Shown here piece after piece: positions 14,501-18,581 of a stretch of 64,000 nucleotides of DNA (the stretch's first letter is position 1; every line of letters begins with the position of its first letter). The DNA is from Escherichia coli (GTDB lineage Bacteria; Pseudomonadota; Gammaproteobacteria; Enterobacterales; Enterobacteriaceae). The stretch is taken from assembly GCF_044324785.1 (NCBI RefSeq), contig NZ_CP172127.1; one strand, 5' to 3'. Under the pieces are notes generated by a model, which was not told where the DNA came from, ran no database searches, and was given only the letters and a program-made list of their open reading frames with translations. A program made the position numbers and the translations under genes.

Positions 14501-17113
14501 TCAAGCCAGTGCTTTAGTTATCTTCTCGTACAGATCGCCAGAGAGATTTTCCAGCCCTTTCAACTGTTCCAGCGCCGCGCGCATTTTCTCCTGACGTTTG
14601 GCATCATATCGTTTCAGGCGAATCAGCGGCTCAATCAGGCGCGAAGCCACCTGCGGGTTACGGCTGTTGAGGTCGGTAAGCATTTCCACCAGGAACTGGT
14701 AACCGCTGCCATCTTCAGCATGGAACGCTGCCGGGTTGCTGCCCGCAAACGCGCCAATCAACGAACGAATACGGTTCGGGTTGCTCATGGTAAATGAGCG
14801 ATGCTGCAACAGACCGCGCACCGTCTCCAGAACATTCGCCGCCGGGCTGGTGGCTTGCAGGATAAACCATTTATCCATCACCAGACCATCCTGATGCCAC
14901 TTGTCGTCGTACTCCTGCATCAGCGCATCACGGCATGGCAACTGTGCAGCAACCGCCGCAGAAAGCGCCGCCAGCGCATCAGTCATATTGTTTGCTTCAT
15001 GGAACTGCTTGCTTACCAGCACGTCAGCCAGATGCGTTTCACCAAAAGCGAGGAAGCGCAGGCAGGCATTACGCAGAGTGCGTTTTGCAATATCTTCATG
15101 CTCAACACGGTACTCGCTCTGGTAATTCGCGTTGTAAATAGCCAGCAGCTCATCCGCCAGTTCAGTCGCCAGAGTACGGGTGAGTGCTTCGCGCACTTCG
15201 GCAATAGCAATCGGGTCGATGATATCGAACAGTTCCGCCATTTCATTGACGGAAGGCAGCGTCAGGATTTCTGCCGCCAGTGCCGGATCAATCTTCTCAT
15301 CAAGCAGCACTGCGCGGAAAGCGTCAGCCACATGCACCGGCAGAGACAGCGGCTGCCCTTGCTGATGACGGGCGACGTTGAGCTTGATGTAGGTTGCCAG
15401 CAGGCTTTGCGCCGCATCCCAGCGGGAGAAATCATTACGCGCATGGCGCATCAGGAAGGTCAGTTGCTGATCGCTCCACTTATATTCCAGTTTCACTGGC
15501 GCAGAGAATTCGCACAGCAGCGCAGGCACCGGCTGAAAGTAGACATTATCAAAGACAAAGGTCTGTTCCGCCTGGGTGACGTTCAGCACCGAATTCACCG
15601 GATGACCGCCTTTTTGCAACGGGATCACTTTGCCTTCGTTATCATACAATTCGATTGCAAACGGAATATGCAGCGGTTGTTTTTCTGCCTGATCCGGCGT
15701 AGCAGGCGTACGCTGGCTGATGGTCAGGGTGTACTGCTCGGTTTCTGGATTATAGTCGTCTTTGACGGTCACAACCGGCGTACCGGACTGGCTGTACCAA
15801 CGGCGGAAATGAGAGAGATCGACATTCGACGCATCTTCCATCGCCTGAACAAAGTCGTCGCAGGTTGCCGCGCTGCCATCATGGCGCTCGAAATAGAGCT
15901 GCATCCCTTTCTGGAAGTTTTCTTCGCCCAGCAGGGTGTGGATCATGCGAATCACTTCCGCGCCCTTCTCGTAAACGGTCAGGGTGTAGAAGTTGTTCAT
16001 CTCAATGACCATATCCGGGCGGATCGGGTGCGCCATCGGGCTGGCGTCTTCCGCAAACTGCAATCCGCGCATGGTGCGCACGTTGTTGATACGGTTTACC
16101 GCGCGAGAACCAAGGTCAGAGCTGAATTCCTGATCGCGGAACACGGTTAAACCTTCTTTCAGGCTGAGCTGGAACCAGTCGCGGCAGGTCACACGGTTAC
16201 CGGTCCAGTTGTGGAAATATTCGTGACCAATAACACGCTCAATATCGAGGTAATCTTTATCGGTGGCGGTGTCGGTACGGGCCAGCACATATTTGGAGTT
16301 AAAGATATTCAGACCCTTATTCTCCATTGCGCCCATATTAAAGAAGTCCACCGCGACGATCATATAGATGTCGAGGTCATACTCCAGGCCGAAGCGTTCT
16401 TCATCCCATTTCATGGAGTTTTTCAGCGAGGTCATCGCCCACGGCGCGCGGTCGAGGTTGCCGCGATCGACGTACAACTCCAGCGCCACTTCGCGACCAG
16501 AACGCGTGGTGAAGGTGTCGCGCAGCACGTCGAAGTCGCCTGCAACCAGCGCAAACAGGTAGCACGGTTTCGGGAACGGGTCCTGCCACTGTACCCAGTG
16601 ACGTCCGTTTTCCAGTTCGCCTTGCGCAACGCGGTTACCGTTGGAAAGCAGGAAGGGATATTTGGTTTTATCGGCAATAATTTTGGTGGTAAAACGCGCC
16701 AGCACGTCCGGGCGGTCAAGATAATACGTAATATGGCGGAAACCTTCGGCTTCACACTGAGTGCAAAGCGCATCGCCTGACTGATAAAGCCCTTCCAGCG
16801 CGGTATTCGTCGCCGGGCTAATTTCATTAACGATCTTAAGCGTAAAACGCTCCGGCAAATTACTGATGACCAGTGCGCCATCTTCTTCTTTCCAGGCGGT
16901 CCACGGCTCATCATTAATATGAACAGAAACCAGTTTAAGATCTTCGCCATCAAGACGAAGCGGAGCATCTGATGCACCATGACGGACAGCCTGGCTGACC
17001 GCGGTAACGACCGTCTTTTGCGCGTCCAGGTCAAAGGTCAAGTCAATATCAGTAATCTGGTAATCCGGCGCACGATAATCGTGACGGTATTTGGCTTGTG
17101 GCTGTTGAGTCAT
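14501..17113 (-). CDS. pepN: aminopeptidase N
   Basis: 870-aa M1 metallopeptidase with HEYFHNWTG zinc motif and GAMEN motif. Confidence 0.95.
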   Translation of the reverse strand: MTQQPQAKYRHDYRAPDYQITDIDLTFDLDAQKTVVTAVSQAVRHGASDAPLRLDGEDLKLVSVHINDEPWTAWKEEDGALVISNLPERFTLKIVNEISPATNTALEGLYQSGDALCTQCEAEGFRHITYYLDRPDVLARFTTKIIADKTKYPFLLSNGNRVAQGELENGRHWVQWQDPFPKPCYLFALVAGDFDVLRDTFTTRSGREVALELYVDRGNLDRAPWAMTSLKNSMKWDEERFGLEYDLDIYMIVAVDFFNMGAMENKGLNIFNSKYVLARTDTATDKDYLDIERVIGHEYFHNWTGNRVTCRDWFQLSLKEGLTVFRDQEFSSDLGSRAVNRINNVRTMRGLQFAEDASPMAHPIRPDMVIEMNNFYTLTVYEKGAEVIRMIHTLLGEENFQKGMQLYFERHDGSAATCDDFVQAMEDASNVDLSHFRRWYSQSGTPVVTVKDDYNPETEQYTLTISQRTPATPDQAEKQPLHIPFAIELYDNEGKVIPLQKGGHPVNSVLNVTQAEQTFVFDNVYFQPVPALLCEFSAPVKLEYKWSDQQLTFLMRHARNDFSRWDAAQSLLATYIKLNVARHQQGQPLSLPVHVADAFRAVLLDEKIDPALAAEILTLPSVNEMAELFDIIDPIAIAEVREALTRTLATELADELLAIYNANYQSEYRVEHEDIAKRTLRNACLRFLAFGETHLADVLVSKQFHEANNMTDALAALSAAVAAQLPCRDALMQEYDDKWHQDGLVMDKWFILQATSPAANVLETVRGLLQHRSFTMSNPNRIRSLIGAFAGSNPAAFHAEDGSGYQFLVEMLTDLNSRNPQVASRLIEPLIRLKRYDAKRQEKMRAALEQLKGLENLSGDLYEKITKALA

Positions 17114-17331
17114 AAATAACCTTTAGCATCTTTTATAGAGTCTGGTGTTCAGTCTATTCCTGTTGCGTAAATCGCGCTATGCAGAATCTTCATCTTTTCA
17201 GGTACAAACGCCTTTATTGCTACATTTTTATAACATACACCGCGTAATGCCATCGACCAGAAAGGTGGCATATGGTGTGATCGGGGTTCAATAAATTGCG
17301 AAACAAGGTATACTCCAGCAGTTCCTGAAGA

Positions 17332-17349
17332 TGTTTATTGTACTAAACG
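17332..17349. promoter_or_regulatory. putative NadR operator (TGTTTA-N6-TAAACg) in the pncB promoter
   Basis: Imperfect inverted repeat TGTTTATTGTACTAAACG about 30-45 bp upstream of the pncB ATG; resembles the NadR box consensus. Confidence 0.45.
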
Positions 17350-17378
17350 CTCCTGTACGAGGACGCTACTGCGCACCT

Positions 17379-18581
17379 ATGACACAATTCGCTTCTCCTG
17401 TTCTGCACTCGTTGCTGGATACAGATGCTTATAAGTTGCATATGCAGCAAGCCGTGTTTCATCACTATTACGATGTGCATGTCGCGGCGGAGTTTCGTTG
17501 CCGAGGTGACGATCTGCTGGGTATTTATGCCGATGCTATTCGTGAACAGGTTCAGGCGATGCAGCACCTGCGCCTGCAGGATGATGAATATCAATGGCTC
17601 TCTGCCCTGCCTTTCTTTAAGGCCGACTATCTTAACTGGCTACGCGAGTTCCGCTTTAACCCGGAACAAGTCACCGTGTCCAACGATAATGGCAAGCTGG
17701 ATATTCGTTTAAGCGGCCCGTGGCGTGAAGTCATCCTCTGGGAAGTTCCTTTGCTGGCGGTTATCAGTGAAATGGTACATCGCTATCGCTCACCGCAGGC
17801 CGACGTTGCGCAAGCCCTCGACACGCTGGAAAGCAAATTAGCCGACTTCTCGGCATTAACCGCCGGTCTTGATATGTCGCGCTTCCATCTGATGGATTTT
17901 GGCACCCGCCGACGTTTTTCTCGTGAAGTACAAGAAACCATCGTGAAACGTCTGCAACAGGAATCCTGGTTCGTGGGCACCAGCAACTACGATCTGGCGC
18001 GTCGGCTTTCCCTCACGCCAATGGGAACACAAGCACACGAATGGTTCCAGGCGCATCAGCAAATCAGTCCGGATCTTGCCAACAGCCAGCGAGCTGCACT
18101 TGCTGCCTGGCTGGAAGAATACCCCGACCAACTTGGCATTGCATTAACCGACTGCATCACTATGGATGCTTTCCTGCGTGATTTCGGTGTCGAGTTCGCC
18201 AGCCGCTATCAGGGCTTGCGTCATGACTCCGGCGACCCAGTTGAATGGGGTGAAAAAGCCATTGCACATTATGAGAAGCTGGGAATTGATCCACAGAGTA
18301 AAACGCTGGTTTTCTCTGACAATCTGGATTTACGCAAAGCGGTTGAGCTATACCGCCATTTCTCTTCCCGTGTGCAATTAAGTTTTGGTATTGGGACTCG
18401 CCTGACCTGCGATATCCCCCAGGTAAAACCCCTGAATATTGTCATTAAGTTGGTTGAGTGTAACGGTAAACCGGTGGCGAAACTTTCTGACAGCCCTGGC
18501 AAAACTATCTGCCACGATAAAGCGTTTGTTCGGGCGCTGCGCAAAGCGTTCGACCTTCCGCATATTAAAAAAGCCAGTTAA
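17379..18581 (+). CDS. pncB: nicotinate phosphoribosyltransferase
   Basis: 400 aa from the ATG at 17379 ([26 protein letters not shown]); ORF-track start over-extended. Confidence 0.95.

Follow-up and report, generated by a model that had tools for sequence, protein, structure and literature searches.

Between pepN and pncB of Escherichia coli lies a short spacer in which an 18-bp palindrome precedes the pncB start codon. The locus raises the question of whether this palindrome is the operator of the NAD-sensing repressor NadR, and how it is placed relative to the pncB promoter. The NadR–pncB circuit has been known since about 1990. NadR binds a palindrome with NAD as its co-repressor and ATP antagonises binding, and c-di-GMP was recently reported to antagonise it as ATP does (PMC2330245, PMC2330246, PMC12421817). 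The operator consensus is the 18-bp palindrome TGTTTA-N6-TAAACA (PMC2330245, PMC2330246). pncB is listed among the NadR-repressed genes (PMC12421817, PMC5343134), and the known regulon used here for comparison comprises nadA-pnuC, nadB, pncB, niaP and nadR. The conserved core of this regulon is nadA-pnuC, and only several enterobacterial genomes include pncB in it (PMC5343134).

The pepN–pncB locus

The window, that is, the whole 64-kb stretch of DNA analysed, is E. coli chromosome. RefSeq annotation of identical E. coli DNA gives the gene order ssuC, ssuB, pepN (minus strand), pncB (plus strand), asnS and ompF. The pepN start codon ends at 17113 and the pncB ATG occupies 17379–17381, in agreement with RefSeq and K-12, which leaves a spacer of 265 bp (17114–17378). 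A first-pass annotation had described a divergent pepN–pncB region with these same boundaries, and they agree with both RefSeq and K-12. The list of open reading frames opens pncB at an in-frame upstream ATG at 17331; the annotated start is 17379. The features discussed below are as follows, in window coordinates.

14501..17113, minus strand: pepN, aminopeptidase N, 870 aa, the divergent neighbour (annotation; Pfam Peptidase_M1 and associated domains)
17144, minus strand: pepN transcription start site, mapped from 990591, with a leader of 31 nt
17271..17308, plus strand: conserved block TATGGTGTGATCGGGGTTCAATAAATTGCGAAACAAGG, upstream of and overlapping the -35 region, about -50 to -13
17286..17291, plus strand: putative weak -35-like element GTTCAA with a 17-bp spacer, read from the sequence
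17309..17314, plus strand: pncB -10 hexamer TATACT (-12 to -7), placed relative to the mapped start site
17321, plus strand: pncB transcription start site (G), mapped from 990414 through the 100% identical spacer
17321..17378, plus strand: 58-nt pncB 5' leader, from the mapped start site to the annotated ATG
17332..17349, no strand assigned: probable NadR operator (NAD box) TGTTTATTGTACTAAACG, TGTTTA-TTGTAC-TAAACG, from consensus match and conservation
17379..18581, plus strand: pncB, nicotinate phosphoribosyltransferase, 400 aa (RefSeq annotation of identical DNA; Pfam NAPRTase_N and NAPRTase)

Comparison with the K-12 pncB promoter, which the first-pass annotation had proposed as a check, showed that the spacer is base-for-base identical to MG1655 990357–990621 (K-12 coordinate = 1007735 minus window position). 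A 501-bp segment around the NadR box has 100% matches in many complete E. coli genomes and is present in 5425 of 5426 E. coli genomes. Of 5425 E. coli genomes, 5404 carry the 265-bp spacer at 99% identity or more, and the 77-nt promoter, operator and leader are identical in 5404 of the 5425 complete genomes. When E. coli genomes were searched with the spacer, four of 5429 matching places were on records labelled plasmids. Between the window strain and K-12, 4.4% of the positions in pepN and 2.4% of those in pncB are different, nearly all of them third codon positions. Over 566 bp (17028–17593), a tract that takes in the whole spacer, there are no differences from K-12. The distribution of substitutions indicates either strong purifying selection or a shared recombinant segment.

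The pncB promoter

Start sites were taken from SMRT-Cappable-seq data for K-12 in NC_000913.3 coordinates (PMC6131387, Supplementary Data 1 and 2). They lie at 990414 (reverse) for pncB (b0931), 990591 (forward) for pepN (b0932), 782002 (forward) for nadA-pnuC and 2710391 (forward) for nadB (PMC6131387). The pncB start at 17321 is 7 nt past TATACT, an exact fit for a -10 hexamer at -12 to -7. TATACT is invariant in the 55 box-bearing sequences described below and present in all representative and box-less loci inspected. A scan of 16900–17600 for consensus sigma-70 promoters and terminators found nothing; it missed the pncB promoter because this promoter combines a good -10 with a poor -35. 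On this map the NadR box occupies +12 to +29 of the pncB transcription unit.

The promoters of pepN and pncB stand back to back with no overlap. The starts of pepN and pncB are 177 bp apart. The NadR box lies 188 bp from the pepN start, and because of this distance pepN is unlikely to be affected by the box.

The NadR box of pncB

TGTTTATTGTACTAAACG sits exactly at 17332–17349, the position at which the first-pass annotation had placed a palindrome just upstream of the pncB start, and it lies 30–47 nt upstream of the ATG. The annotation had also noted a resemblance to the NadR operator. This was borne out, as the box matches the consensus at 11 of the 12 specified positions with a spacing of exactly 6 nt and its placement parallels the boxes of nadA and nadB; the mismatch is the last base, G in place of A. 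Five of the six pairs of the box are self-complementary (GTTTA/TAAAC). A search for inverted repeats with an exact 6-nt seed reported nothing at the box, because the arms share only five exact complementary bases.

The box is the sole match with at most one mismatch to the consensus in the 64-kb window, where 0.19 are expected, and 18 of 100 shuffles of the whole window contain such a match somewhere. At two mismatches or fewer the window holds seven matches, and the other six are unremarkable and fall within unrelated sequence. For the 265-bp spacer alone, a match with no more than one mismatch has an analytical probability of 0.0015; shuffling gives 0.00115.

A degenerate NadR-like sequence, TCAATAAATTGCGAAACA, occurs at 17288–17305 (-33 to -16), where it overlaps the pncB -35 and spacer. 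It has four mismatches in E. coli, and its counterpart in Salmonella and Citrobacter, TCAATAAATCGCTAAACA, has three. This sequence may be a weak auxiliary site or may simply be promoter sequence.

Comparison with nadA and nadB

The K-12 nadA box TGTTTAGCATATAAAACA has one mismatch and spans -7 to +11, and the K-12 nadB box TGTTTAGTAAATTAAACA has none and spans +6 to +23. nadB in K-12 also has a second site, a two-mismatch box at -69 to -52. Nothing comparable was found upstream of K-12 nadR. The best boxes of nadA, nadB and pncB therefore all lie on or just downstream of the start site, where a repressor that keeps polymerase from binding or escaping would be expected to sit. The pncB site is the same palindrome as the NAD box (the NadR/NadI operator of nadA-pnuC, nadB and pncB) at 11 of 12 positions, is start-proximal like the others, and is identical in sequence to K-12. 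It differs from the nadA and nadB boxes in its one non-consensus base, the final G, and in lying slightly further downstream (+12 to +29).

K-12 nadR is annotated as a DNA-binding repressor, and its trifunctional product carries an N-terminal HTH_3 domain (residues 7–59), followed by an NMN adenylyltransferase domain (CTP_transf_like) and a ribosylnicotinamide kinase domain (AAA_28). nadR lies outside the 64-kb window, and an HTH-bearing NadR is established for the species through the K-12 copy. The operators of NiaR (YrxA) and NrtR, through which other bacteria regulate pncB and further NAD genes, are, like the pncB box, repressor sites at promoters of NAD biosynthesis or salvage genes, and these regulators, as NadR does, respond to a pyridine-nucleotide-related effector (PMC2330245, PMC2330246). 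However, NiaR (niacin) and NrtR (ADP-ribose) belong to regulator families unrelated to NadR, with unrelated motifs and effectors, and neither is expected in E. coli.

Conservation in Enterobacteriaceae

A PncB query against one genome per species gave 80 Enterobacteriaceae loci with 82–98% protein identity. The boxes were tallied over 81 sequences, namely these 80 loci and the window.

Box with at most one mismatch, 46–47 nt before the pncB ATG: 54 loci and the window (the same 18-mer, in 54 of 80 species)
Different two-mismatch box TGTTCAATATATTAAACT, about 155 nt upstream of the pncB ATG: 9 sequences (Klebsiella, Raoultella, Trabulsiella)
Perfect box at -197: 1 sequence (Enterobacter sp. Ag1)
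No box: 16 sequences (Atlantibacter, Franconibacter, Siccibacter, Mangrovibacter, Superficieibacter, Pseudescherichia vulneris and relatives)

The proximal box is found in Escherichia, Salmonella, Citrobacter, Enterobacter, Lelliottia, Leclercia, Kluyvera, Kosakonia, Phytobacter, Pluralibacter, Pseudocitrobacter and others. Every proximal box ends in G, and almost all share the TTGTAC spacer. Among the 80 species, Cronobacter-like and other lineages have no NadR-like box at pncB. This patchy distribution agrees with reports that pncB belongs to the NadR regulon in only some enterobacteria (PMC12421817, PMC5343134). In a midpoint-rooted tree of pncB most of the taxa without a box are basal and a few are nested, and a single-gene tree of this kind cannot settle the direction of box gain or loss.

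Conservation of the palindrome in orthologous pncB promoters was the test set in advance by the first-pass annotation. It is retained in 54 of 80 species. Identity to E. coli, in the 55 box-bearing sequences (a set chosen for having the box) and at synonymous sites of the same genomes, is as follows.

Half-sites of the box: 100%, with 12 of 12 columns invariant
Spacer of the box: 97%
-10 hexamer: 100%
Linker between start site and box, 17322–17331: 43%
Four-fold degenerate sites of pncB: 42.5%

The pncB box is a sharp phylogenetic footprint, and the adjacent linker drifts at the neutral rate.

In Klebsiella, Raoultella and Trabulsiella (L058, L054, L038 and relatives), TGTTCAATATATTAAACT lies inside a block homologous to E. 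coli 17284–17305, and an insertion of about 65 nt separates this block from the conserved TATACT. The arrangement suggests that the NadR site is placed differently in these genera.

Conserved sequences around the box

The box is embedded in sequence that is conserved more widely than the box itself. The block at 17271–17308 has a mean identity of 91% with 22 of 38 columns invariant in the 55 sequences, compared with 42.5% at neutral sites, and it is also retained in species without a NadR box. All 80 species share the TATACT -10, a TGTGATC-N4-TTCAATAAA block at about -45 to -25 and a leader motif GAAACGCTCC...GAGGA. A CRP/FNR site was considered at TGTGATCGGGGTTCAA (17276–17291), which has a perfect left half, TGTGA. 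It was judged by eye not to be canonical, as the right half is poor (TTCAA against TCACA) and the element as a whole is centred at -37.5 instead of -41.5.

Downstream of the start site, AAACGCTCC (17345–17353) is common to all 80 species, with or without a box, and is followed in all of them by a conserved leader ending GAGAGGA(T/C)GC...GCGCACC-ATG. The leader 3' of the box (17350–17378) is conserved, and identity in the rest of the leader is 86%. In place of the ...TTGTACTAAACGCTCC of E. coli, species without a box have ...TGATGGAAACGCTCC. The final G of the pncB box thus belongs to a motif kept more widely than the box, and membership in the wider AAACGCTCC motif would plausibly explain why this base is not the consensus A. 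Since AAACG is kept in species without a box, conservation of the right half-site is not all attributable to NadR.

The box-less species (L062, L069, L076, L084, L049, L053 and others) have a conserved early leader of their own, TCTTTATCTGC...TGATGGAAACGCTCC; at the same position E. coli has the variable linker and the NadR box. Only about 25 nt of the early leader set species with a box apart from those without one, and within each group its own version of this stretch is conserved. It is possible, though we consider it rather doubtful, that the pncB operator is a lineage-specific graft on an older regulatory scaffold. If it were, at least one undescribed regulator of niacin salvage would have its sites in the shared block and the alternative leader (TCTTTATCTGC...TGATGGAAACG), and NadR control would have been layered on by turning a pre-existing AAACG into a half-site. 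Such a conversion would explain the non-consensus G.

GAGGA (17359–17363), conserved in all 80 species, is the sole Shine–Dalgarno-like motif in the pncB leader. It ends 15 nt before the ATG, which is too far for a canonical ribosome-binding site, and initiation of pncB therefore looks atypical. Hand-drawn stems (SD-sequestering, 'B-type') were also considered for the leader and were discarded, as uncompensated substitutions in Klebsiella, Trabulsiella and P. vulneris disrupt their pairs.

Alternative explanations for the palindrome

A functionless, AT-rich near-palindrome could arise by chance, a reading favoured by the seven window matches at two mismatches and by the 18 of 100 shuffled windows with a match of at most one mismatch. 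Inside this particular 265-bp spacer, however, the probability is about 0.001. The 18-mer is moreover kept in 54 species while neutral sites stand at 42.5% and the adjoining 10 nt drift freely, so that a chance origin can be practically dismissed. We give just as little weight to the reading of the box as coding sequence, in which PncB would be extended at its N-terminus from the ATG at 17331 as a 416-aa product. The frame 17331..18581 is indeed open and continuous with pncB. However, both the annotation and K-12 place the start at 17379, and the mapped transcription start would leave a leader of only 10 nt before 17331. The ATG itself is TTG in most genera, Salmonella and Citrobacter among them, and the frame is not kept, since the distance from box to ATG varies between 47 and 46 nt from genus to genus.

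The box could instead act at the RNA level, as a hairpin in the 5' leader that affects mRNA stability or translation, since it is transcribed within the 58-nt leader, the rest of the leader is conserved as well (86% identity), and in box-less species this place is taken by another leader segment that is likewise conserved. Yet the leader (17321–17400) folds no better than shuffled sequences (z = 0.11), and in its minimum-energy fold the palindrome does not form a hairpin; the stem of such a hairpin would consist of five A-U-rich pairs and one G-U. No Rfam family was found on the pncB side, and the box-less leaders show no common fold. The half-sites match the consensus of a protein operator that also occurs at nadA and nadB. 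We consider action at the RNA level very improbable, although it is the least improbable of these alternatives. A different regulator that recognises a TGTTTA/TAAAC-like motif might bind the box while NadR controls pncB from elsewhere, for example from the degenerate sequence at 17288–17305 over the -35 and spacer (four mismatches, three in Salmonella and Citrobacter); Klebsiella and Raoultella have their two-mismatch box at the homologous upstream block. Against this, 17332–17349 is by far the best match in the spacer, its placement parallels that of the nadA and nadB boxes, and literature searches brought up no other candidate. This explanation is slightly less probable still than one at the RNA level.

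We conclude with high confidence, from comparative sequence evidence, that 17332–17349 is the NadR operator of the E. coli pncB promoter. The site agrees with the consensus, stands at the promoter of an NAD gene close to the start site, is conserved, and occurs in a species with an HTH-bearing NadR. Going by statements in the secondary literature, TGTTTATTGTACTAAACG is presumably the published pncB operator; a full-text literature search for the exact 17-mer found no paper. The operator is an already described, ordinary regulatory element, and there is nothing new in it.

When NAD is plentiful, NadR would bind the 18-bp palindrome, as the literature describes for this repressor. NadR bound at +12 to +29 would overlap the downstream edge of the RNA polymerase footprint and might hinder open-complex formation or promoter escape at pncB by steric means. 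With a full NAD pool, less nicotinate phosphoribosyltransferase would then be made and niacin salvage would be reduced. Repression is perhaps modest, as a box that starts at +12 lies at the edge of the polymerase footprint. pncB is repressed more weakly than nadA and nadB, which would fit a box in this position. The site would thus tie niacin salvage to the NAD-sensing NadR repressor, and its value here is one of correct annotation. A modest value for the evolution of the regulon lies in the map of the box against the start site, the parallel with nadA and nadB, the patchy distribution, and the leader motif that would explain the mismatch.

The pepN side of the spacer

Rfam RF02779, the PepN 5' UTR thermometer, gave a weak match at 17084–17211 on the minus strand (21.3 bits, E = 0.08–0.2). 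Membership in the family was rejected, as the score is far from the gathering value of 83, the match comes mostly from the first pepN codons with many non-canonical pairs, and the mapped pepN leader is only 31 nt long. This match is on the pepN side of the spacer and is unrelated to the NadR box. Literature searches for other regulators of the pepN–pncB spacer gave nothing useful. The mapped pepN start is preceded by a -10-like TAGACT at 17156–17151 on the minus strand. Further upstream, 17219–17236 is a conserved block with 89% identity and 7 of 18 columns invariant, which reads TGTTATAAAAATGTAGCA on the pepN strand. As an extended -10-like TGnTATAAA some 75 nt ahead of the mapped pepN start, the block could be a second pepN promoter or the site of a regulator.
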